From the IMG/VR virus record IMGVR_UViG_2531839145_000010: a stretch of 36,526 bases of DNA; one strand, written 5' to 3'. This document shows, piece by piece, positions 1 through 35,592 of this stretch. The notes beneath the pieces are model-generated. The model saw only the letters and a list, made by a program, of their open reading frames with translations, had not been told where the DNA came from and made no database searches. Origin of the DNA: a virus. Lineage: Duplodnaviria > Heunggongvirae > Uroviricota > Caudoviricetes. Every line of letters starts with the position of its first letter. The first letter of the stretch is position 1. The translations under genes and the position numbers were made by a program.

Positions 1-1053
1 TTACGGGGTAATGCCAACCGCTGCCGCCACTTTGTCGCCACTTGGCAATGTTGCCAGAGGATTGAAACGGAGCGCCGTTTCCAGATGATCCGGTGCCAGA
101 TGTGCGTAACGCATAGTCATTTTTATATCGTGGTGTCCGAGAATTTTTTGTAAGGCCAGGATGTTTCCACCCGACATCATGAAGTGCGCCGCAAAAGTAT
201 GGCGCAGAACGTGTGTCAGTTGACCGCGAGGGAGCACGATAGACGTTTTTTCCATCACGGATAAAAATTGAAAATAGCAGTCTGTGAAGAAATTGAACCC
301 ATCAAGCGCCATGATCTCTTCGTAAAGCTCTTTACTGATAGGGATGCTTCTGTTTTTCTTCCCCTTCGTTCTTACAAAGGTAATTCGGTATTTGGTCACC
401 TGTGAGCGGGTAAGATTTACGGCTTCTCGCCAGCGTGCGCCTGTGCTTAAGCATATCTTGACTACCAGAGCCAGAATTGGGTCCTGACGTTTGCAATCAG
501 CCAGTAATTCAACAATCTGCTCATGGGTAAGCCATGCCATCTCTTTTTCTGCGATGGTGAATTTTCGCATGTTCTCCAGTGGGTTCGGATACGACCATTC
601 GCCCAGACGGGATAGTTCGCTAAAAACACTACTTAGATAGCTTTGCTCCAGGTTAATGGTGACCGGGCTTGCTCCTTTCTTCCATTTCTCGCTGAAGTAG
701 ATCTCGCCTGTCAGGCGTTTATCTCGATAGTGGGCAAACATTTTAGAGGTGAGATCGGTTGCAAGAGGATTGCCTAGAGCGTCAACCATCAGCAGCAATT
801 TGTCATAGACATGCTGTCCAGCAGTCAGAGATTTACCATGTAGTTTGAACCATAGCTCAACCACGTCTTTCAGGGTTCGACGATCCACTGATTCGCCCAG
901 CCAGGGCTTTGATTCGGTTTCTTCCATCGTGTGACGCTCAAAAGCCAGAGCTTCGCCTTTGGTGGCGAATTGTTTACGCACACGACGCCCACTTCGTCCG
1001 GCGGGGTAACATTCGCAAAGCCATTTCCCTGTGGTGAGTTTTCGTACTGCCAT
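1..1053 (-). CDS. int: Tyrosine integrase (P2 Int-like)
   Basis: Track ORF 1..1209; N-terminus MAVRKLTTGKW... aligns from memory with P2 Int MAIKKLDDGRY..., so start placed at ATG 1051-1053; recombinase motifs LSTGARWREA, HVLRHTFAAH, MRYAHL (catalytic Tyr). Confidence 0.9.
   Translation of the reverse strand: MAVRKLTTGKWLCECYPAGRSGRRVRKQFATKGEALAFERHTMEETESKPWLGESVDRRTLKDVVELWFKLHGKSLTAGQHVYDKLLLMVDALGNPLATDLTSKMFAHYRDKRLTGEIYFSEKWKKGASPVTINLEQSYLSSVFSELSRLGEWSYPNPLENMRKFTIAEKEMAWLTHEQIVELLADCKRQDPILALVVKICLSTGARWREAVNLTRSQVTKYRITFVRTKGKKNRSIPISKELYEEIMALDGFNFFTDCYFQFLSVMEKTSIVLPRGQLTHVLRHTFAAHFMMSGGNILALQKILGHHDIKMTMRYAHLAPDHLETALRFNPLATLPSGDKVAAAVGITP
19..40. repeat. Left copy of prophage attachment-site core (attL), 22 bp, overlapping the 3' end of int
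   Basis: cgctgccgccaCtttgtcgcca at 19-40 recurs at 33672-33693 with one mismatch; the copies flank the whole phage gene set. Confidence 0.6.
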
Positions 1054-1241
1054 AAAAAATGCCCTCCAGTAGAGAGCATTTTTACTGTATGTATAACCAG
1101 TGTCAATGTATGAAATCCTACGACCATACATCTCACTGAAGCCATAATGAAGTTGGCTATTCTTTTTGCTATGTGAGCATGTAACTTTTGCGGTTAACCT
1201 GCGGCTCATTTTTATTTTAGACGCAGATATAAAAACAAAAG

Positions 1242-8476: not shown

Positions 8477-9160
8477 CTATGATTGAAGAGCAATCTTTCT
8501 CAACGTATCAAATACAATTTTTGTAAAATTATTTTCATTTTTAACGTCAATGTAAGCAAGAGCGTTATTAGTAATTTTAAGTTTACCAGAATACTCTAAT
8601 GAATTAACGGAGCAAACAAGTTTGTCAATTCTTATTTTCTTCCCCTCTAATTCTTCTTTATAATATTTTCTAAGGTCACTGCTGCCAATTATTTGCATTT
8701 TAGCTGTAGCGTAATCAGCGACTCTAACTCTAGAAATATCCAGTTGTGTTAGATTTATATTCACATTTGAAGATATTTCGTTGAGCCAGTCCATCGGATT
8801 TATATCAATCTCTTCTAGGCTAACGCCTAAGCCAAGATTTCTGACTAAGGCCTGTGAAAACGGTTTTAAAGTTCGCGGAGGGTTAGTAAGTTGCATTATA
8901 GGAAGAGTATCTAAAGATACACTGAAATTAGTAGTGCGGTATTCGACTCTTTCTACGATAGTTTCGCTTCCGTCAAAATTAGAAACTTGATCGTGATAAA
9001 TAATACGCTCAACAAAGCGTCCATGTGCAGAATCATGACGTATTTTATCAAAAATAAACCCTTTCCCCTTATCCTCGGTAAAAGAATCAAGAGAAAGACG
9101 TTTAACAGCTTTTTCAAATTCAAGCCGTATGTTTAATTTGAGCCACTTAACCTTCTTCAT
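8477..9160 (-). CDS. Cargo operon gene 3: hypothetical protein (227 aa), no recognised domain
   Basis: Start overlaps upstream gene by 14 nt; AT-rich; no motifs recognised by eye. Confidence 0.7.
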   Translation of the reverse strand: MKKVKWLKLNIRLEFEKAVKRLSLDSFTEDKGKGFIFDKIRHDSAHGRFVERIIYHDQVSNFDGSETIVERVEYRTTNFSVSLDTLPIMQLTNPPRTLKPFSQALVRNLGLGVSLEEIDINPMDWLNEISSNVNINLTQLDISRVRVADYATAKMQIIGSSDLRKYYKEELEGKKIRIDKLVCSVNSLEYSGKLKITNNALAYIDVKNENNFTKIVFDTLRKIALQS

Positions 9161-10226
9161 GTTCGTTTACCTCTGGTCCTATTATTATATTATAGGCATT
9201 TTCAGCGGCTGACTCAATTAATTCACTAATATGTCTTTTCTCTTGTGCCGTTGCCGCACGAATTGTCACATTGAATCCGTCTTCTTTTTGATTATTTATC
9301 CCTTTAATTTGATAGGCAAAGTCACAGCAATTTTCAGAGTCTTTGAAAAATGCTTCAACGTTAATTCTGTCACCAACTCCACTTGTCGGTTTTGAAGACC
9401 ATGCGATACGGCCTATATAATAACCTTTCTCGTGTAGTTGAGAAAATATAGGCGAACTATTAACACCTTCACCATTCAAAACAGCTTTCTTGACGAATCC
9501 GGTATCGATTGTTTCTTCTTTGTCTTCATCTTCACTTGCGTCAATACTGCGATTTAATTCTACTTTCGTTACATCATCAGTCTCATAACCATGTAGTCCA
9601 TTCATTAACTCTTGAAAGAACTGGCTTCGCAATGTAGGGTCAGTGATTGCCATTAAAGAAATTTCAAAACGTTCAATAGGCTCAGATTTGATTTTAGACA
9701 GCTCGTTTTGCAGACCCTCAATAACTTTTTTTGCCTCAGGATTCTGTGGCATACGTACTTCAACCTTGTCAACACCAGGGCGAAGTTCTATTATGACATT
9801 CCGTTTATCTATTTGACGCAGAGCGGTTTTAGATAAGTCTATTTCTTCATAGTTATATTCTACTGTCAGAGAACCATCTTTTTTCGCTACGATATTCAAG
9901 CTTTGCCCTTTACTGGGTGAACATGTTTTTTTCAATGCTTCAGCTGCGCTCTTTAATTCGGCCTGATTTGTTGTGGTCTGAAAACTCACACTGGTAATGC
10001 TTTCTCTTGGATCATATGTTTTGACCATCTTTTTTATATGCTCTAATTCATTAAAGCCATGGGGGAGTTTTGATATTTCCTCGATAAGTATTTCCTTGTC
10101 GAGTTCTGGTGATAAAAAAACACCTCTATTTAGCAATAATTCATGTAATTTTGCAGGGGTTATTCTTTTATGATGCAAAGCATCATAAATATTCTTGTCA
10201 GTCGCAAAGTATAATTTTTTAGCCAT
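9147..10226 (-). CDS. Cargo operon gene 2: hypothetical protein (359 aa), highly charged
   Basis: ATG overlaps upstream stop by 1 nt (TAATG); acidic stretch DASEDEDKEETID; no catalytic motif recognised. Confidence 0.7.
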   Translation of the reverse strand: MAKKLYFATDKNIYDALHHKRITPAKLHELLLNRGVFLSPELDKEILIEEISKLPHGFNELEHIKKMVKTYDPRESITSVSFQTTTNQAELKSAAEALKKTCSPSKGQSLNIVAKKDGSLTVEYNYEEIDLSKTALRQIDKRNVIIELRPGVDKVEVRMPQNPEAKKVIEGLQNELSKIKSEPIERFEISLMAITDPTLRSQFFQELMNGLHGYETDDVTKVELNRSIDASEDEDKEETIDTGFVKKAVLNGEGVNSSPIFSQLHEKGYYIGRIAWSSKPTSGVGDRINVEAFFKDSENCCDFAYQIKGINNQKEDGFNVTIRAATAQEKRHISELIESAAENAYNIIIGPEVNEHEEG

Positions 10227-11227
10227 TATCGTTGCTCCATCCCAATTTTTTCAAGATTATATTCAACTACAACTTTGTCTGTCTTTTCGAAGTCAAATTT
10301 AAGAAAAAGTCTTTCATCCTCACCTAACAGCCAGTCTGTACTGTATTTCTTTTTAGCTTTTTCAAAATGATGAATAGCATTTTCATTTGGATGGATATGA
10401 CAATGACGTAATAAAATTGGTTTGCCTTCAGTGAGTATCTGATAAGTTGATAGCATGTCAAAAAAGTACACAAATTCATCTAATGAATCACCGGGTTGAT
10501 TGTAATAAACAACATACCCTTCTGGGATATCTTTTTTAAGCCAGCTAAAAGCCTCATGTTTAATTATGATGTATGGCGATGTTAATAATTCAATTGTCGC
10601 AGGTGTTGTTTGGTTGATGGGGTGTTTTATTCTTGTTAAAGAAAGATCTGGGTAATAGTAAGTAAACTTATCAGGCTGTGGAAGTTTTCCAGAGCCTATT
10701 AATTTGGTTATGTCAGAGGATATATTTATTAAATCAGATATTTTATAGGGGTCAAGTAAGTGTAGTTTTATGTTTGGAGGACAATTTATAACGGAATGAT
10801 CTAATTTTTTTGTAATATTTTCATAGAAATCTTTATCATATAGATTATCATGATTATACAAAAATAACAAACCTCTTACATTATAACCTAAAGAATCATC
10901 ATGAACGTATTTCAATCGCCACTCTTCACTTACATTCGCACACTCGGTAGCTAAAGCAAGTGAGGTTAAGGCACCTTCGACCATTTTTTTACCAATAGAT
11001 CCCACCGCATAGCTCTTTAGATCTGTATTGAGATAGACCATTTCCTCTTCATAAGGGTCTGTGTAGAAAAATACAACATCACTTGGATGGGTTTTCTTGG
11101 AATGTACCTCTTGGCAACATTCCCAATTCATGTCCGCTCTAGCGGCGCGATCCCATTTGAATACAGAGAAAATATCATCAGAAATTTTACCTGCGACTCG
11201 TTGTATAGCCGAAGTTTCTCCACCCAT
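10226..11227 (-). CDS. Cargo operon gene 1: hypothetical protein (333 aa), His-rich C-terminal motif
   Basis: GGAG RBS about 10 nt upstream of ATG 11225-11227; His cluster HCHIHPNENAIHH; AT-rich; occupies the P2 old/tin position. Confidence 0.7.
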   Translation of the reverse strand: MGGETSAIQRVAGKISDDIFSVFKWDRAARADMNWECCQEVHSKKTHPSDVVFFYTDPYEEEMVYLNTDLKSYAVGSIGKKMVEGALTSLALATECANVSEEWRLKYVHDDSLGYNVRGLLFLYNHDNLYDKDFYENITKKLDHSVINCPPNIKLHLLDPYKISDLINISSDITKLIGSGKLPQPDKFTYYYPDLSLTRIKHPINQTTPATIELLTSPYIIIKHEAFSWLKKDIPEGYVVYYNQPGDSLDEFVYFFDMLSTYQILTEGKPILLRHCHIHPNENAIHHFEKAKKKYSTDWLLGEDERLFLKFDFEKTDKVVVEYNLEKIGMEQR

Positions 11228-17573: not shown

Positions 17574-18038
17574 ATGAAGTTTGTTGCGCCAGAACAGGCA
17601 CCGGAACAGGCGGAAATCATCAGAAATACGCCGTTCTGGCCTGATGTGGACCTGTCGGAGTTTCGCAGTGTGATGCGCACTGACGGCACGGTGACGCAGC
17701 CGCGTTTAAAGCAGGTTGCGCTGTCGGCAATTTCGGAGGTCAACGCAGAGCTGTATGAGTTTCGCAGACGCCAGCAGATGCTGGGATATGCCTCGCTGGC
17801 AGAGGTTCCGGCGGAACAGCTGGACGGGAAAAGCGAGCGAATTCAGCACTATTTCAACGCGGTTTACTGCTGGGCTCGCGCCATGCTCAACGAACGTTAC
17901 CAGGACTATGACGCCACGGCATCCGGTGTGAAGCGGGGCGAGGAACTGGCAGAAGCCAGCGGTGATTTGTGGCGTGACGCCCGCTGGGCCATCTGCCGGG
18001 TACAGGATGCGCCGCACTGCACAGTGGAGCTTATCTGA
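17574..18038 (+). CDS. L: Head completion protein (P2 gpL-like)
   Basis: ATG 17574 after aggagaaagcagc RBS; position after M. Confidence 0.75.
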   Translation: MKFVAPEQAPEQAEIIRNTPFWPDVDLSEFRSVMRTDGTVTQPRLKQVALSAISEVNAELYEFRRRQQMLGYASLAEVPAEQLDGKSERIQHYFNAVYCWARAMLNERYQDYDATASGVKRGEELAEASGDLWRDARWAICRVQDAPHCTVELI

Positions 18039-18241
18039 TGAAAGTGCGTGCGCATCAGTATGACACGGTGGACGCGCTTTGCTGGCGTCATTACGGGCGC
18101 ACGCAGGGTGTCACGGAGCAGGTACTGAAGGCAAATCCGGGGCTTGCCGAATTTGGCCCTTTTTTACCTCACGGGCTGCAGGTGGAGCTGCCGGACATTC
18201 CGACCACCACCACCGTGCAGACCGTCCAGCTATGGGACTGA
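18038..18241 (+). CDS. X: Tail protein X (P2 gpX-like)
   Basis: 67 aa; position between L and the lysis genes. Confidence 0.7.
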   Translation: MKVRAHQYDTVDALCWRHYGRTQGVTEQVLKANPGLAEFGPFLPHGLQVELPDIPTTTTVQTVQLWD

Positions 18242-18244
18242 ATT

Positions 18245-18460
18245 ATGACGCTTGAGCGAATCAGCGCCTTTATCACGTATTGCATCGCCGTTGTGCTGGC
18301 CTGGCTGGGCGATTTGTCCATCAAGGATGCCTCAACGCTGGGTGGCCTGATGATTGGTGTGCTGATGCTGGCTATCAACTGGTACTACAAACACAAAGCC
18401 TACCAGCTTCTGCGCGACGGGCAGATCTCGCGGGAGGACTATGAATCCATCAATCGTTAA
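18245..18460 (+). CDS. Holin, two-TMD class (pinholin-like)
   Basis: 71 aa, two hydrophobic segments and a charged C-terminus; immediately upstream of a SAR-type endolysin. Confidence 0.7.
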   Translation: MTLERISAFITYCIAVVLAWLGDLSIKDASTLGGLMIGVLMLAINWYYKHKAYQLLRDGQISREDYESINR

Positions 18461-18953
18461 ACGCTGCCTTGTCGGGGCCGTGCTGGCTATTGCTGCCACG
18501 CTGCCGGGGTTTCAGCAACTTCACACCTCCGTGGAGGGGCTGAAACTGATTGCCGATTACGAAGGCTGTCGTCTGCAGCCGTATCAGTGCAGCGCGGGTG
18601 TCTGGACCGACGGCATTGGTAATACGTCGGGCGTCATTCCCGGCAAAACTATTACGGAACGACAGGCAGCAGAAGGGCTGATCTCCAACGTGCTACGTGT
18701 GGAGCGGGCGCTGGAAAGGTGTGTGAAGCAACAGCCGCCGCAGAAGGTGTATGACGCTACGGTGTCGTTTGCCTTCAACGTGGGGACGGGCAATGCCTGC
18801 AGTTCCACGCTGGTGAAATTACTCAATCAGCGGCGCTGGGCGGATGCGTGCCGACAGTTGCCGCGCTGGGTTTATGTGAAAGGTGTGTTTAATCAGGGGC
18901 TGGATAACCGCCGTGCGCGGGAGATGGCCTGGTGTTTACAGGGAGCAAACTGA
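18441..18953 (+). CDS. SAR endolysin (T4-lysozyme-type fold, P21 R-like)
   Basis: Hydrophobic N-terminus LVGAVLAIAATL; FNVGTGNACSSTLVKLLN and RRAREMAWCLQG resemble recalled P21 R. Confidence 0.8.
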   Translation: MNPSIVKRCLVGAVLAIAATLPGFQQLHTSVEGLKLIADYEGCRLQPYQCSAGVWTDGIGNTSGVIPGKTITERQAAEGLISNVLRVERALERCVKQQPPQKVYDATVSFAFNVGTGNACSSTLVKLLNQRRWADACRQLPRWVYVKGVFNQGLDNRRAREMAWCLQGAN

Positions 18954-18954
18954 A

Positions 18955-19332
18955 ATGAAAAAGAAATTAATCAGCGGACTGTTTCTGATGTTATGGATGG
19001 CGCTGTTAATCGCAGCAATGGTGTATCCGCAGGGGATCTTTCCGGTACTGGCAGCGTCCGGCGTTTGGGTAGCCTGTTTGCTGACATGGGCGGTAATTCC
19101 GGTAGCACTGGCTGCGTTAATTCAGAATGGCCCGCTCTGGCAGGAGTTAAGGGCATCTTTGCTGAAGACAATTACCCGAAAAGAAAACGTATTTATCAGT
19201 TGGGTGATGCGATTGCTGATTGTTGTAAGTCTCGCATGGACGGGGTGGGCTATTACCCTGGTCTTTTATCTACTGACCGTTATTGCCTTCTGGATCACCC
19301 GTAATCAGATGGCGCAACAGGTAGCCGCATGA
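18955..19332 (+). CDS. lysA: LysA-like membrane protein (putative lysis timing/antiholin)
   Basis: Multiple hydrophobic helices; position between endolysin and spanin genes. Confidence 0.6.
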   Translation: MKKKLISGLFLMLWMALLIAAMVYPQGIFPVLAASGVWVACLLTWAVIPVALAALIQNGPLWQELRASLLKTITRKENVFISWVMRLLIVVSLAWTGWAITLVFYLLTVIAFWITRNQMAQQVAA

Positions 19333-19757
19333 ACCGGTTGCTGCTGGTTGTGCTGGCGTTATTACTGGCGGCGCTGGGCTGGCAGACGTGGCGGCTGGCT
19401 GATGCCAGCCAGACCATCAGCACGCAGGCAAACGAGCTGCAGAGCAAAAGCCAGGCACTGGCAAAGAGCAACAGCCAGCTTATCAGCCTGTCCATTCTGA
19501 CTGAAACCAATAACCGGGAGCAGGCGCGGCTCTATGCCGAAGCAGAACAGACCAGCGCACAGCTGAGACAACGACAACGCCGGATCGAGGAACTGAAACG
19601 TGAGAACGAGGATTTACGCCACTGGGCTGATACTCCTTTGCCTGCTGACATTATCCGGCTGCGGGAACGTCCGGCACTCACCGGAGGTGCAGCTTACCGT
19701 CAGTGGTTGTCCGCGAGTGACGCCGTGTCGGCTGGAGCAGGCAGCACCGCGCACTAA
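19329..19757 (+). CDS. lysB: Inner-membrane spanin subunit (LysB/Rz-like)
   Basis: N-terminal TMD followed by a charged helical region. Confidence 0.7.
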   Translation: MNRLLLVVLALLLAALGWQTWRLADASQTISTQANELQSKSQALAKSNSQLISLSILTETNNREQARLYAEAEQTSAQLRQRQRRIEELKRENEDLRHWADTPLPADIIRLRERPALTGGAAYRQWLSASDAVSAGAGSTAH

Positions 19758-19890
19758 CGGTGATCTGAATGCGTTGCTGGATGAAACGGAGGCCGCCTGG
19801 GCGGTCTGTGCAGACAAAGTGGACATGATTATTGCGTGTCAGGAGCGAAACAGTGAACAAACCACAATCCCTGCGCCACGCCCTCAATAA
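19600..19890 (+). CDS. lysC: Outer-membrane lipoprotein spanin subunit (LysC/Rz1-like)
   Basis: GTG start; lipobox LTLSGC after signal peptide; overlaps the 3' end of lysB in another frame. Confidence 0.65.
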   Translation: MRTRIYATGLILLCLLTLSGCGNVRHSPEVQLTVSGCPRVTPCRLEQAAPRTNGDLNALLDETEAAWAVCADKVDMIIACQERNSEQTTIPAPRPQ

Positions 19891-20284
19891 AGCGGTGCCT
19901 TATGTCCGCAATAACCCGGACAAACTGCATCTGTTTGTGGATAACGGTTCGCTGGTTGCCACGGGGGCCAGCTCCATGTCATGGGAGTACCGCTATACAC
20001 TGAACGTGGTGATAGAGGATTTCAGCGGCGACCAGAATCTGCTGATGGCCCCGGTTTTACTGTGGCTTCGGGATAACCAGCCCGATGCCATCAATAACCC
20101 GGCGTTACGGGAAAAGCTATTCACCTTTGATGTGGATATTTTGCGCAACGATGTCTGTGATATCAGCCTTAATCTGCAACTGACGGAACGTGTGCTGGTC
20201 AGCACTGACGGCAGTGTGTCGAGCGTTGAAGCTGTAGCAGAACCCGATGAACCTGAAGAAATGTGGACGGTGAAACGTGGCTGA
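19853..20284 (+). CDS. R: Tail completion protein (P2 gpR-like)
   Basis: GTG 19853 after aggagcgaaaca; NKPQSLRHALNKA... matches recalled P2 R N-terminus. Confidence 0.8.
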   Translation: MNKPQSLRHALNKAVPYVRNNPDKLHLFVDNGSLVATGASSMSWEYRYTLNVVIEDFSGDQNLLMAPVLLWLRDNQPDAINNPALREKLFTFDVDILRNDVCDISLNLQLTERVLVSTDGSVSSVEAVAEPDEPEEMWTVKRG

Positions 20285-20723
20285 ACTGCAGAAGGTGGAC
20301 GACTGGCTGAGTGCCTTGCTGGCGAATCTGGAACCAGCCACGAGAAGCCGCATGATGCGCCAGCTGGCGCAGGAACTGCGCCGGACACAGCAGCAGAATA
20401 TCAGGATGCAGCGCAATCCAGATGGCAGCAGTTATGAACCGCGACGGGTAACAGCACGCAGTAAAAAGGGGCGCATAAAACGTCAGATGTTTACAAAGCT
20501 GCGCACCACAAAATACCTGAAAACTGCCGCCAGCGCCGATTCTGCCAGCGTGCAGTTTGAAGGTAAGGTGCAGCGCATTGCCCGCGTTCATCACTACGGC
20601 CTGCGTGATCGCATCAGTCGAAGAGGACCGGAGGTCCGTTACGCAGAGCGTCGTCTCCTAGGCGTAAATGATGATGTGGAAACTGTCATTCAGGATGCTT
20701 TGCTAAATTGGTTACAGAGATAA
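20277..20723 (+). CDS. S: Tail completion protein (P2 gpS-like)
   Basis: 148 aa; GTG start overlapping R stop. Confidence 0.8.
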   Translation: MAELQKVDDWLSALLANLEPATRSRMMRQLAQELRRTQQQNIRMQRNPDGSSYEPRRVTARSKKGRIKRQMFTKLRTTKYLKTAASADSASVQFEGKVQRIARVHHYGLRDRISRRGPEVRYAERRLLGVNDDVETVIQDALLNWLQR

Positions 20724-20749: not shown

Positions 20750-21616
20750 TTACTTTTTACTGATAAATGGATTCCTATCAATCCATGAGTCCCAGTTTAT
20801 ATAATTGTCATCAAATCCTATGAATTTCATTAGTACAAGTGGCACCAGTAAATTCAAATTTGATGAGTAATCTTGAATTTCAATTTTGCCATCTGAGTTT
20901 TTTTCATCAAGATAGGCAATGTATTTACCATTGTGGAACAGCGAGTGACGGAGTTTGCAGTAATGCATAATGTTTCTTTGAGCTAATGTATGTCCTGTTT
21001 TTTCGACATTAAAACCATATTCTTTTAAAACCTGAGTGATTATTTGTGGCGTTTTGGCAGGGGAGTAGTCATTTTTAATAAATCTGCAAAGTGCTTCTAG
21101 TGCCGAGAATAATAAATAATATCTGACGTCGATATAATTTATTGAGTCGCGGAAAGCTAGCATTGATTTAAAAAATGATGTTCTAAAGGCATCTTGTTTT
21201 AGCATGGCTTTACTATTTAGTTTTTCCATGGCTAAGCAAATAAAATTTTCTCGGCTGTTTGGTGCAAAATAATCTTCCATGATGATAATGCCAGCACCCT
21301 TATCTCTTTTTTTGTCAAGCTTTTTGGGTAGGGATGGTTTGAAATTGAAAGGGGTTTCATCATTTTCAAGTTCTCCTGAAATGATTACATTTTTTTGTTC
21401 AATAAAACTAAGAACTGCTTGTAAATCAAAAATAAGCTGCTGTTGAGTGGCGTAGTTATTCGAGTTTGGTTTGAAAAAACCAGTGAGGATGTACCTATCA
21501 TTAGCCCAGCCATTTTTTTTTAACTCACTCCATGAACTGAAAATAGGAGTTAACTCACCACCGTCAAATGTGATTTTTTTAGTGAAATTAAATCCATAAA
21601 TTGCGATTTGTGTCAT
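20750..21616 (-). CDS. AT-rich cargo protein (289 aa) with possible HEPN-like R-x4-H motif
   Basis: ATG 21614-21616 with taagg RBS preferred over the track start at 21664; motif KLRHSLFHNG; sits in the S-V variable locus (P2 orf30 position) on the opposite strand. Confidence 0.65.
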   Translation of the reverse strand: MTQIAIYGFNFTKKITFDGGELTPIFSSWSELKKNGWANDRYILTGFFKPNSNNYATQQQLIFDLQAVLSFIEQKNVIISGELENDETPFNFKPSLPKKLDKKRDKGAGIIIMEDYFAPNSRENFICLAMEKLNSKAMLKQDAFRTSFFKSMLAFRDSINYIDVRYYLLFSALEALCRFIKNDYSPAKTPQIITQVLKEYGFNVEKTGHTLAQRNIMHYCKLRHSLFHNGKYIAYLDEKNSDGKIEIQDYSSNLNLLVPLVLMKFIGFDDNYINWDSWIDRNPFISKK

Positions 21617-21645
21617 CTTAAATACCTTAGAAATTGTTTCTCTTT

Positions 21646-21663
21646 TGTGTGGTTCTCCATACA
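21646..21663. promoter_or_regulatory. Ogr/Delta-type late-activator site (TGT-N12-ACA) upstream of V
   Basis: TGTgtggttctccatACA, sharing TGTGTGGTT with the site at 14821; spacing to the V start codon is shorter than at the other two sites. Confidence 0.4.
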
Positions 21664-21711
21664 TACGCTCTGTATTACATCACTCTACCCGGTTGTGCAA
21701 GGATCGCTCTC

Positions 21712-33906: not shown

Positions 33907-35592
33907 TTATCCTAATCCTGGCCATACCATGACGATGATTGTCCCTGCCAGCGTCAGCAGGACGTTGGCGATTGCATAGGTGCCCGCATAGCCCAGCGCC
34001 GGGATGTTACTGCGAGCTGTATCACTGATGATCTCCATTGCCGGCGCGCAGGTGCGTGCGCCCATCATTGCGCCGAACAACAGTGCGCGGTTCATTCGCA
34101 ATACATAAGCACCGAACAAGAAACAGATAACCACTGGCACAAGACTGACAATCAATCCGGCAATCAACATCTGACCGCCAATCGCGCCCAGGCCGTTATT
34201 AATACCGCTACCGGCGCTCAGACCAACGCCTGCCATAAACACCATTAAGCCGAACTCTTTCACCATGCTTAATGCACCCTGCGGAATGTAACCGAAGGTC
34301 GGGTGGTTAGCGCGCATAAATCCCAGCATAATTCCGGCGAATAACAACCCGGCAGCGTTCCCCATGCCGAAACTGAATGTGCTGAACTGGAAGGTGATCA
34401 TCCCGATCATCAGCCCAATAACAAAGAAGGCGCAGAATGCCAGCAAGTCAGTGACCTGGCTGTGAATCGAGATAAAGCCGATGCGATCGGCGATGGTTTT
34501 TACGCGACGGGCATCGCCGCTGACTTGTAAAACGTCACCTTTGTTAAGCACGACGTTGTCATCTATCGGCATCTCAATCTGGCTACGAATGACGCGGTTA
34601 AGGAAGCAACCGTGATCGGTCAACTTCAGTTGTGCGAGACGTTTGCCAACGGCGTTATGGTTTTTAACGACCACTTCTTCAGTGACAATACGCATGTCGA
34701 GAAGGTCACGATCGAAAACTTCTTTGCCGTTACGGAAGCTGGGATCGAGTCGGGCGTGGGCGTCGGGATAGCCTACCAACGCTATTTCATCGCCCATTTG
34801 TAGCACAGCATCACCGTCTGGATTCGCCAGAATCCCGTTACGTCGAATACGTTCAATGTAGCAGCCAGTTTGTCGATAAATACCCAGTTCACGCAGATTT
34901 TTGCCGTCGGTCCAGGCCACCAGCTCCGGGCCGACGCGGTAGGCTCGGATCACCGGTAAATAAACCTTACGGTTGGCATCAGTGTCCAGGCCACGTTCGC
35001 GGGCGATTTGCTGGGCGCTGGTCTGTAAGTCCTGATGCTGCAATTTCGGCAAGTAACGCGCACCAACAATCAAACTCACCAGACCGATTAAATAGGTTAA
35101 GGCATACCCGAGGCTCAGATTATCCAGTGCCAGTGAGAGCTGCCTGCTTTCCATGCCGGAATGACGCAGTGTATCGCCAGCACCGACCAGAACCGGTGTT
35201 GACGTCATAGAGCCAGCTAACATACCGGCCGTCAGGCCAATATCCCAGCCAAACAGCTTACCTAACCCTAAGGCGATCACCAGCGCACTGCCAACCATCA
35301 CCAGTGCTAACATTAGGTAATTTTTCCCATCGCGAAAAAAAATGGAAAAAAAGTTCGGTCCGGCTTCGACCCCGACGCAGAAAATAAACAGCATAAAGCC
35401 AAGATTAAGCGCGTCGGTGTTAATGCTGAAATGTTGTTGGCCTAATAACAGCGATACGACTAAAACGCCAATGGAATTACCCAGTTGGATCGAACCAAGT
35501 CGTAATTTCCCGAGACATAGCCCAAGCGCGAGGACCACAAATAATAACAGAATGTAATTCCCATTTAACAATTCGGCGACGTTTATATTCAC
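33907..35592 (-). CDS. ybjL: AAE-family putative transporter YbjL (host gene)
   Basis: 561-aa polytopic membrane protein; recognised from memory as E. coli YbjL; outside the att repeats. Confidence 0.8.

Follow-up and report, generated by a model that had tools for sequence, protein, structure and literature searches.

A probable Fels-2-type lysis cassette in a P2-like prophage, with a predicted P1 Lyz-type SAR endolysin and an HP1-family class II holin

Introduction

What kind of lysis system occupies the slot between genes X and R of a P2-like late operon when neither the holin nor the endolysin encoded there resembles its counterpart in P2? The question is raised by positions 18,245 to 19,890 of IMG/VR virus record IMGVR_UViG_2531839145_000010, a stretch of 36,526 nucleotides (nt) that is referred to throughout as the window and to which, at its full length, all coordinates refer. 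An original prediction, made from the DNA letters, had read this module as a pinholin joined to a signal-anchor-release (SAR) endolysin resembling R of phage 21 (P21 R, or R21), followed by LysA, LysB and LysC as in phage P2, and had taken the combination to be a module swap inside an otherwise P2-like late region. The analysis reported here indicates that the prophage is P2-like (Peduoviridae) and that the module is probably its lysis cassette, of the Fels-2 type and expressed within the late capsid/tail operon. The genes, all on the + strand, are ordered X, class II holin of the HP1 family, GH24 lysozyme, LysA-like protein, overlapped LysB/LysC, and R (Table 1). Every open reading frame (ORF) named in the original prediction was recovered on that strand and in its place, with residues 10-21 of the lysin reading LVGAVLAIAATL, as quoted there.

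Results and Discussion

Identity of the endolysin

The lysin carries a T4-type (GH24) lysozyme domain (PF00959, E = 4.4e-40; 137 bits against a cut-off of 22.3) and falls into an endolysin family of PHROGs; its relationship to Lyz of phage P1 is closer than that to R21 by each of the measures applied. A phmmer search of the PDB returned P1 Lyz (1XJT) as the best match at E = 2e-26, aligned from residue 13 and with the N-terminal segment included, while R21 (3HDE) was matched at 1e-17; by blastp the lysin is 37% identical to P1 Lyz (E = 4e-33), 33% identical to Lys of Haemophilus phage HP1 (E = 1.6e-26) and 34% identical to P21 R (E = 4.9e-23). The model that AlphaFold2 produced from 26 homologues reaches a mean predicted local distance difference test score (pLDDT) of 92.7, with residues 11-26 in helices at pLDDT >90. 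When this model was compared with the PDB by Foldseek, the full-length active form of P1 Lyz (1XJT) was again the best match, with template modelling (TM) scores of 0.85/0.82 over 173 columns; DLP12 RrrD and R21 came next (TM about 0.8; 0.78-0.81 for 3HDE), and the SAR-less inactive form of P1 Lyz, 1XJU, reached a TM of 0.58. The N-terminal helix of the model is packed onto the body of the enzyme, as it is in 1XJT. Judged by sequence and predicted fold, the lysin is a predicted SAR endolysin of the P1 Lyz type, nearer to P1 Lyz than to P21 R. The original description of the lysin as similar to P21 R and not to P2 K therefore stands in two of its parts, namely the separation from K (blastp E = 0.1) and the SAR kind, and gives way in the third, since the protein is nearer to P1 Lyz than to P21 R (E = 4e-33 vs 4.9e-23).

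The N terminus of the lysin reads Lys-Arg-Cys9-LVGAVLAIAATLPGF, with Lys7-Arg8 standing ahead of the hydrophobic stretch CLVGAVLAIAATLPGF. This candidate SAR segment comprises 16 residues, 44% of which are Gly, Ala, Ser or Thr, and on the Hessa hydrophobicity scale it scores +0.08 kcal/mol per residue, alongside +0.06 for P1 Lyz and +0.08 for R21; the stable anchors of the same cassette score -0.24 (LysB) and -0.17 (the first transmembrane domain, TMD1, of LysA). The catalytic region that follows reads E41-G-C43-RLQPYQ-C50-SAGVW-T56, i.e. Glu-x8-Cys-x5-Thr with a second cysteine two residues past the Glu. Across the alignment of the lysin family E41 and T56 never vary, and C43 and C50 hardly do. 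The same three cysteines, Cys9, Cys43 and Cys50, are found in P1 Lyz as C13, C44 and C51, and the corresponding columns of R21 hold Gly, Val and Asp.

In P1 Lyz, Cys13 is reported by Xu et al. in 2005 to attack the Cys44-Cys51 bond, an isomerisation brought about by the SAR cysteine; R21 is said, in work of Sun et al. from 2009, to be activated by refolding only. A catalytic triad of the form Glu-x8-Cys/Asp-x5-Thr has been defined for SAR lysozymes, and the triad cysteine of P1 Lyz is critical for regulation, being disulfide-bound until activation (PMC3556154). Because the window lysin has the P1 pattern, with Glu41/Cys50/Thr56 accompanied by Cys43 and by a cysteine in the SAR segment, activation by disulfide isomerisation is predicted for it, unlike for R21. 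By analogy with P1 Lyz, the lysozyme would be exported by Sec and held at the inner membrane, with the weakly hydrophobic SAR segment as its tether, where it would be inactive with the catalytic Cys50 locked in a disulfide with Cys43; on holin triggering and collapse of the membrane potential the SAR segment would exit the bilayer, and Cys9 could then attack the Cys43-Cys50 bond, which would free Cys50 and yield active enzyme all around the cell.

The conservation of this cysteine pattern was surveyed by searching 1.84 billion representative proteins and tabulating the lysin matches. The E-C-C-T combination occurs in 66 representatives, 36 of which have a hydrophobic N-terminal segment; a cysteine lies in or next to that segment in 34 of the 36, and the other two look N-terminally truncated. 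A second survey, in which species-representative genomes were scanned with a profile of the window holin, gave 32 loci with enough sequence for comparison, and the three-cysteine pattern is present downstream of the window-type holin in all of them (32/32).

The resemblance to P1 Lyz (1XJT/1XJU) thus takes in the GH24 fold, the Glu-x8-Cys-x5-Thr triad, the caging cysteine, the SAR cysteine and a count of seven cysteines in both proteins. The window lysin differs in being 15 residues shorter, in the absence of an 11-residue insertion that follows the NVG motif, and in the length of its hydrophobic segment (16 residues rather than 20). The genetic settings differ as well: the window lysin follows directly after the holin in a P2-type late operon, whereas P1 lyz is found with lydD, in an operon separate from lydA/lydB.

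Nature of the holin

The 71-aa, two-TMD holin that had been described upstream of the endolysin is borne out by hydropathy, which shows two hydrophobic segments at residues 6-22 (TMD1) and 29-48 (TMD2), separated by the loop DLSIKD and followed by a C-terminal tail with many charged residues and a net charge of +1; this predicted layout fits an N-in/C-in class II holin. The protein scores above the cut-off of the HP1 holin family (PF16080, 36.7 bits vs 28.8), and identical proteins in RefSeq are named 'HP1 family phage holin'; the match to the Pfam family of the P21 holin S (PF04971; E = 7e-5) reaches 23.2 bits and falls short of the 26-bit cut-off. Family profiles were then compared, one for the window holin (19 sequences, down to 28% identity) and one for S21 (22 sequences), and hhalign aligned the two with a probability of 90.6% (E = 1.3e-6, 51 columns). 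The alignment takes in both TMDs as well as the E-[RK]-I-S motif at the N terminus and the N-x-Y-[YF]-K junction, and relative to the window holin the TMD1 of S21 has in this alignment a 6-residue insertion, which is its Gly/Ser/Ala-rich stretch. From these profiles the window holin is a probable distant relative of S21.

A constancy of partners is evident from the 32 species-representative loci: in all 32 a gpX homologue lies upstream of the window-type holin, and in all 32 the holin gene is followed, with an overlap of 4-46 nt, by the gene for a lysozyme with K-R-C, a hydrophobic segment and E-C-C-T. The same pairing of holin and SAR lysin is found in Fels-2, Midge, RCIP0057, the Yersinia phage vB_YenM_56.17 and HP1, and most phages with a SAR lysin encode pinholins (PMC9239132). 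The holin's probable kinship with S21, together with a partner that is in every case a SAR lysin, makes us lean, on balance, towards a small-hole, depolarising, pinholin-like protein. The label 'pinholin' itself is plausible, its whole basis being the size of the protein, its two TMDs and its SAR-lysin partner.

Several points weigh against this assignment and against the activation scheme given above. The TMD1 of the window holin (ISAFITYCIAVVLAWLG) has a Hessa sum of -0.56 over 17 aa, with 35% Gly, Ala, Ser or Thr, compared with +8.55 over 22 aa and 55% for TMD1 of S21 (-0.03 vs +0.39 per residue); by composition it would not be SAR-like, its hydrophobicity being close to that of an ordinary anchor. 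The window holin also lacks a dual start: its single ATG has a TGA two codons before it, and Leu (CTT) stands where S21 has Met4. Because TMD1 is more hydrophobic and a dual start is missing, the triggering of S21, in which TMD1 leaves the membrane, may not apply here. The partners of P1 Lyz include not only the pinholin LydD but also two large-hole holins, LydA and LydC, and the large-hole holin lambda S works with R21 (PMC9025707); LydD, the pinholin encoded next to P1 lyz, shows no similarity to the window holin. According to recent work holin function is not assignable from sequence alone and calls for a complementation assay (bioRxiv 10.1101/2025.11.12.688109; PMC9239132), and the assay that defines a pinholin has been described (PMC9025707; bioRxiv 10.1101/2025.11.12.688109); for the window holin family, a literature search brought up no functional study. 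On the side of the lysin, the SAR segment, at 13-16 residues, is short, and an A-I-A motif within it could in principle be taken for a signal-peptidase site. We infer by analogy that the N terminus stays uncleaved, that the lysin is tethered to the membrane and that its disulfide isomerises, and the same holds for the size of the holes.

The first alternative is a canonical large-hole class II holin, with a SAR lysin that responds to depolarisation by any holin. The ordinary anchor-like hydrophobicity of TMD1 (-0.03 per residue, vs +0.39 in S21), the single start, the ability of SAR endolysins to work with P1 LydA/LydC and of R21 to work with lambda S (PMC9025707), and the difficulty of assigning holin function from sequence (bioRxiv 10.1101/2025.11.12.688109) all make it a possible reading; we nevertheless hold it to be doubtful, given that the holin is a probable S21 homologue, that a SAR lysin and never a soluble one adjoins it in 32/32 loci and in every phage lineage examined, that several relatives have S21-like double-Met starts such as MGLKMEK, and that pinholins are the rule among SAR-lysin phages (PMC9239132).

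The double-Met starts, which resemble the dual start of S21, occur in more distant relatives of the window holin, with the two Met codons four codons apart: MGLKMEK in the Yersinia phage, MGLSMEK in Midge and MNITMER in Pantoea/Enterobacter prophages, the window/Fels-2 type having a single start. In several relatives the upstream ATG of the MGL-type holin lies within the last codons of gene X. A further reading, and one that we consider unlikely, is that the window/Fels-2 holin, though related to the S21 pinholin, has given up both features by which S21 is controlled, the dual-start antiholin and a TMD1 of the SAR type, and is triggered by a different route; it may form pinholes without exit of TMD1, or it may have turned into a large-hole holin while keeping a SAR lysin as its partner. 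If this were true, one holin family within P2-like phages would form a natural series for the evolution of holin timing control, running from a Lys-containing dual start (MGLKMEK) through uncharged ones (MGLSMEK, MNITMER) to a single start (MTLER), each with or without LysA.

A system of the phage 21 type, in which an S21-like pinholin with a SAR-type TMD1 and a dual-start antiholin would be coupled to an R21-like lysin activated by SAR refolding alone, is a good deal less probable still. Phage 21 does have the same arrangement, with a 71-aa two-TMD holin directly upstream of a SAR GH24 lysin and then spanins, and the shared holin length and layout, the weak PF04971 match (7e-5), the profile-profile probability of 90.6%, the 34% identity to R21 and the fold match to 3HDE (TM 0.78-0.81) all speak for this reading. 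However, the lysin is closer to P1 Lyz throughout, and R21 has a Glu-Asp-Thr triad without the regulatory cysteines: it carries Asp where the window lysin has Cys50, and Cys43 and Cys9 are absent from it. In S21, TMD1 is of the SAR type and rich in Gly/Ser/Ala, and the start is dual (M-K-S-M), whereas the window holin has a 6-residue gap at that stretch and a far more hydrophobic TMD1, a stop two codons ahead of its only ATG, Leu in place of S21 Met4, and a PF04971 score below the cut-off.

N terminus and start of the lysin

Two other alternatives concern the N terminus of the lysin. The n-region MNPSIVKR, the short hydrophobic core and the A-I-A motif superficially fit a cleavable Sec signal peptide, in which case the lysozyme would be secreted and active without tethering. 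This is highly improbable, as cleavage would discard Cys9, which is conserved in 34/36 distant relatives and in 32/32 loci; moreover, the segment aligns with the SAR domain of P1 Lyz, it lies within the predicted fold (pLDDT >90) in the manner of full-length 1XJT, the same A-I-A motif is present inside P1 Lyz and R21, neither of which is cleaved, and a free secreted lysozyme would cause premature host lysis.

That the lysin instead starts at GTG 18480, giving a soluble cytoplasmic endolysin of about 158 aa that would need a large-hole holin, is barely credible despite the annotation of this shorter ORF in two public records (ON470620, Fels-2), because ATG 18441 is preceded by GGGAGGA, the upstream peptide M-N/S-x-S-I-V-K-R-C is kept in relatives of 62-63% identity (Midge, Yersinia phage) and in all 32 loci, the long form is used in KP12, Midge, RCIP0057 and RefSeq records, and the GTG start would fall in the middle of the hydrophobic helix. 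Read from ATG 18441, the lysin gene overlaps the 3' end of the holin gene by 20 nt.

LysA, LysB and LysC

After the lysin come LysA, LysB and LysC in the order known from P2, as had been predicted, and the lipobox LTLSGC is found at LysC residues 16-21 (nt 19645-19662). LysB matches TIGR03495 with 174 bits (cut-off 92.75) and has an N-terminal TMD, and LysC matches NF038368 with 124 bits (cut-off 27) and PF23793 with E = 1.5e-15; the lysC gene opens within lysB, in the +1 frame, and its end falls within gene R, which is the architecture of overlapped spanin genes. LysB and LysC are clearly a two-component spanin of the overlapped P2 type. Read from GTG 19600, LysC includes both the signal peptide and the lipobox, as does P2 LysC.

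The LysA-like protein has four hydrophobic segments, matches NF038378 with 123 bits (cut-off 40) and belongs to the same PHROG (phrog_162) as P2 LysA; it is a putative antiholin or lysis-timing factor and probably modulates timing. Its gene varies: lysA is missing, with lysB straight after the lysin gene, in 18 of about 75 near-identical IMG/VR relatives; it is present in 19 and absent from 18 of 37 loci with the window holin family; and in Fels-2 its slot holds two small unrelated-looking ORFs. Being absent from about half of the related cassettes, lysA is dispensable, an optional and exchangeable accessory of the cassette. The idea that a dual-start holin and a separate lysA are alternatives to each other was considered and set aside, since the two show no correlation and both types of start occur with and without lysA. 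P2 lysA (NC_001895.1) carries in its record the product name 'endolysin', which is taken from PHROG 162.

Databases also contain lysin-LysA fusions of 296 aa, which are explained by the loss of one G from 'gcc tgg tgt', near 18925-18960. The loss shifts the reading into the lysA frame, which is open upstream (window ORF 18883-19332), and the conserved C-terminal Cys165 is lost. Dozens of separate 296-aa entries are found among the best 120 matches, several of them from complete genomes of 4.6-5.3 Mb; this is probably a successful lineage carrying an inactivating mutation.

Comparison with P2 and the exchange of holin and lysin

The cassette occupies the same X-R slot of the late operon as in P2, and by blastp the flanking proteins are 40% (L), 61% (X), 54% (R) and 38% (S) identical to those of P2. 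LysB (33% identical) and LysC (41% over 92 aa, signal peptide included) are homologous to their P2 counterparts and have the same overlap, and the LysA-like protein, although in the same PHROG, gives a weak pairwise match to P2 LysA (29% over 35 aa, E = 0.019). The difference from P2 lies in the soluble lysin K and the holin Y, which are not detectably related to the window proteins: the holin has no significant match to Y by blastp (E = 0.002) and reaches 2% when its profile is compared with Y by hhalign, and the lysin has no significant blastp match to K (E = 0.1). Alignment of the pair with P2 Y/K and with P21 S/R, which the original prediction had put forward as its check, thus gives no better result for the P2 proteins. 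P2 Y is a three-TMD protein of 93 aa in PF04550, and P2 K has no match to PF00959 and is annotated as GH24 or GH104 in different RefSeq genomes.

These comparisons are consistent with the holin and lysin being non-homologous, or unrecognisably distant, replacements in an otherwise P2-like late operon. The predicted module swap holds in the sense that Y/K are replaced within a P2-like region; what does not hold is that the swap is special to this element, as it is shared by a large annotated group. It is an old trait of a lineage of P2-like phages and not peculiar to the window. A recent transfer of the holin-lysin pair was considered and rejected, because the GC content of the two genes (0.55-0.59) is like that of the flanks and there is no compositional break; lysA is slightly lower, at 0.50-0.53.

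Related cassettes

The closest counterparts are in Fels-2 and its relatives (SopEPhi, RE2010, Escherichia phages Cartapus and 500465-1, Klebsiella phages 4LV2017, KP12 and the Kp48xx series; Felsduovirus and allied Peduoviridae), in which the order X-holin-lysin-(LysA)-LysB/LysC-R is the same, the holins are 80-100% and the lysins 83-99% identical to those of the window, and only the LysA slot varies. At the nucleotide level the module is 96-97% identical in Escherichia phage 500465-1 and in Klebsiella phages KP12, 4LV2017 and Kp48xx, and 80-90% identical in Salmonella phages of the Fels-2 group; many prophages of Klebsiella carry the cassette as well. More distantly, the P2-like Escherichia phage Midge, Klebsiella phage RCIP0057 and Yersinia phage vB_YenM_56.17 have a class II holin and a SAR endolysin annotated in the same place; their lysins are 62-63% identical to the window lysin and have the same cysteine pattern, but their holins are only 28-37% identical and have candidate dual starts (MGLSMEK, MGLKMEK). 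Of the three phages, only Midge has LysA. Haemophilus phage HP1 (Peduoviridae, Hpunavirus) has a holin, Hol, in the same Pfam family as the window holin (PF16080), and its Lys is also a P1-type SAR lysozyme, with a cysteine in the SAR segment and the motif E-x-C-x6-C-x5-T; HP1 differs in that the pairwise relationship of the holins is not detectable (hhalign 5.7% vs the single sequence) and in that its cassette follows the tail sheath/tube genes, not X.

In the phage collection searched, the number of records with the window holin type is 83 (all of those listed are P2-like), compared with 129 for the P2 Y type and 507 for gpX; from these counts, P2 Y/K is only one of several alternatives among P2-like phages. 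Diversity of lysis modules has already been noted for Burkholderia P2-like phages (PMC3091744). Among complete E. coli genomes the window holin and lysin occur as a pair in 1031 out of 5426 (about 1 in 5) and P2 Y and K in 1498, and two complete E. coli genomes contain the 1646-bp module at 100% identity. All the relatives that a gpX scan of IMG/VR brought up were near-identical, with a gpX identity of at least 94%, and the scan therefore reports on conservation and on the loss of lysA, not on diversity.

Existing annotation

Much of this has been recognised in individual records. The Fels-2 record describes the holin as a putative two-TMD holin and notes the similarity of the lysin to P1 Lyz; the announcement of Midge mentions, besides spanins, a class II holin and a signal-arrest-release endolysin (PMC12697156), to which the Midge record adds a putative antiholin; and RefSeq names the products of the identical module HP1 family phage holin, lysozyme, DNZ54_00345 family protein, LysB and LysC. 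In the KP12 paper a model of the near-identical lysin was aligned to 1XJT (TM 0.83) and the protein was called a SAR endolysin (PMC9902359). The lytic spots that the paper describes for the purified protein were not counted as functional evidence, as its own discussion says that the activity is unverified and as the forward primer printed for the KP12 lysin is the same as that for the unrelated KP1 lysin (PMC9902359).

The arrangement of the cassette is already known, widespread and ordinary. It has little weight as a discovery, and the practical value of the present analysis is in annotation. The lysin is best called from ATG 18441, which keeps the SAR segment and Cys9, and LysC from GTG 19600, which keeps the lipobox. 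Suitable labels are P1-Lyz-like and disulfide-caged, not R21-like, for the lysin, and class II/HP1 family rather than "pinholin" for the holin. Two departures were seen in public records: the lysin is annotated from an internal GTG (about 158 aa) in ON470620.1 and NC_010463.1, cutting the SAR segment, and LysC is annotated as a fragment of 56-57 aa without the lipobox in ON470620.1 and OM835953.1.

Locus and prophage context

The coordinates of the cassette and of its P2-like boundaries are collected in Table 1. The true start of gpR is probably GTG 19853, as in the 432-nt gene annotated in relatives. A scan for promoters and terminators over the operon gave no signal above that expected from shuffled sequence.

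Table 1. Genes and sequence features of the lysis cassette and its flanks (window coordinates)
Feature	Position	Strand	Evidence
gpX tail/baseplate protein; upstream P2-like boundary	18038..18241	+	PF05489, 4.9e-34; 61% identity to P2 X
Class II holin, HP1 holin family, 71 aa	18245..18460	+	PF16080, 36.7 bits; phrog_20, 1.9e-26
Predicted SAR endolysin, P1 Lyz type, GH24, 170 aa, 18.6 kDa	18441..18953	+	PF00959, 4.4e-40
Candidate SAR segment, lysin codons 9-24, CLVGAVLAIAATLPGF	18465..18512	+	Hydrophobicity; Lys7-Arg8 before, Cys9 first
Catalytic motif, lysin codons 41-56, Glu41-x8-Cys50-x5-Thr56 + Cys43	18561..18608	+	Read from sequence
LysA-like four-TMD membrane protein, 125 aa	18955..19332	+	phrog_162, 1e-43; NF038378, 123 bits
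LysB, Rz-like inner-membrane spanin	19329..19757	+	TIGR03495, 174 bits; phrog_89, 5.6e-46
LysC, Rz1-like outer-membrane lipoprotein spanin, 96 aa, GTG start	19600..19890	+	NF038368; PF23793
gpR tail completion protein; downstream P2-like boundary	19832..20284	+	PF06891, 4.9e-47; 54% identity to P2 R
gpS, downstream of gpR	20277-20723	+	38% identity to P2 S

A tyrosine integrase (PF24624 and PF00589) is encoded at the left edge of the window (1-1209, - strand), and a 561-aa Asp-Al_Ex/TrkA_C transporter, presumably a host gene, on its right side (33907-35592, - strand); with the integrase at one end and the presumed host transporter at the other, the window holds essentially a whole integrated P2-like prophage. 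There is no tRNA gene in the window.

Three adjoining genes at 8477-11227 (- strand; 227, 359 and 333 aa) correspond to the PADLOC candidate-defence models Hp3, Hp2 and Hp1, which they match end to end (E = 5e-144 to 1.5e-245), and no Pfam domain was found in any of them. They are placed between a replication gene and the portal gene, the slot of tin and old in P2. A 304-aa ORF at 20750-21664 (- strand), between gpS and gpV in what is the orf30 slot of P2, has a GC content of 0.31-0.34, compared with about 0.57 in its flanks. It has no Pfam or PADLOC match and matches phrog_4373, a family of unknown function, over its full length; it has the look of cargo that was acquired recently, in a slot already known to vary among P2-like phages.

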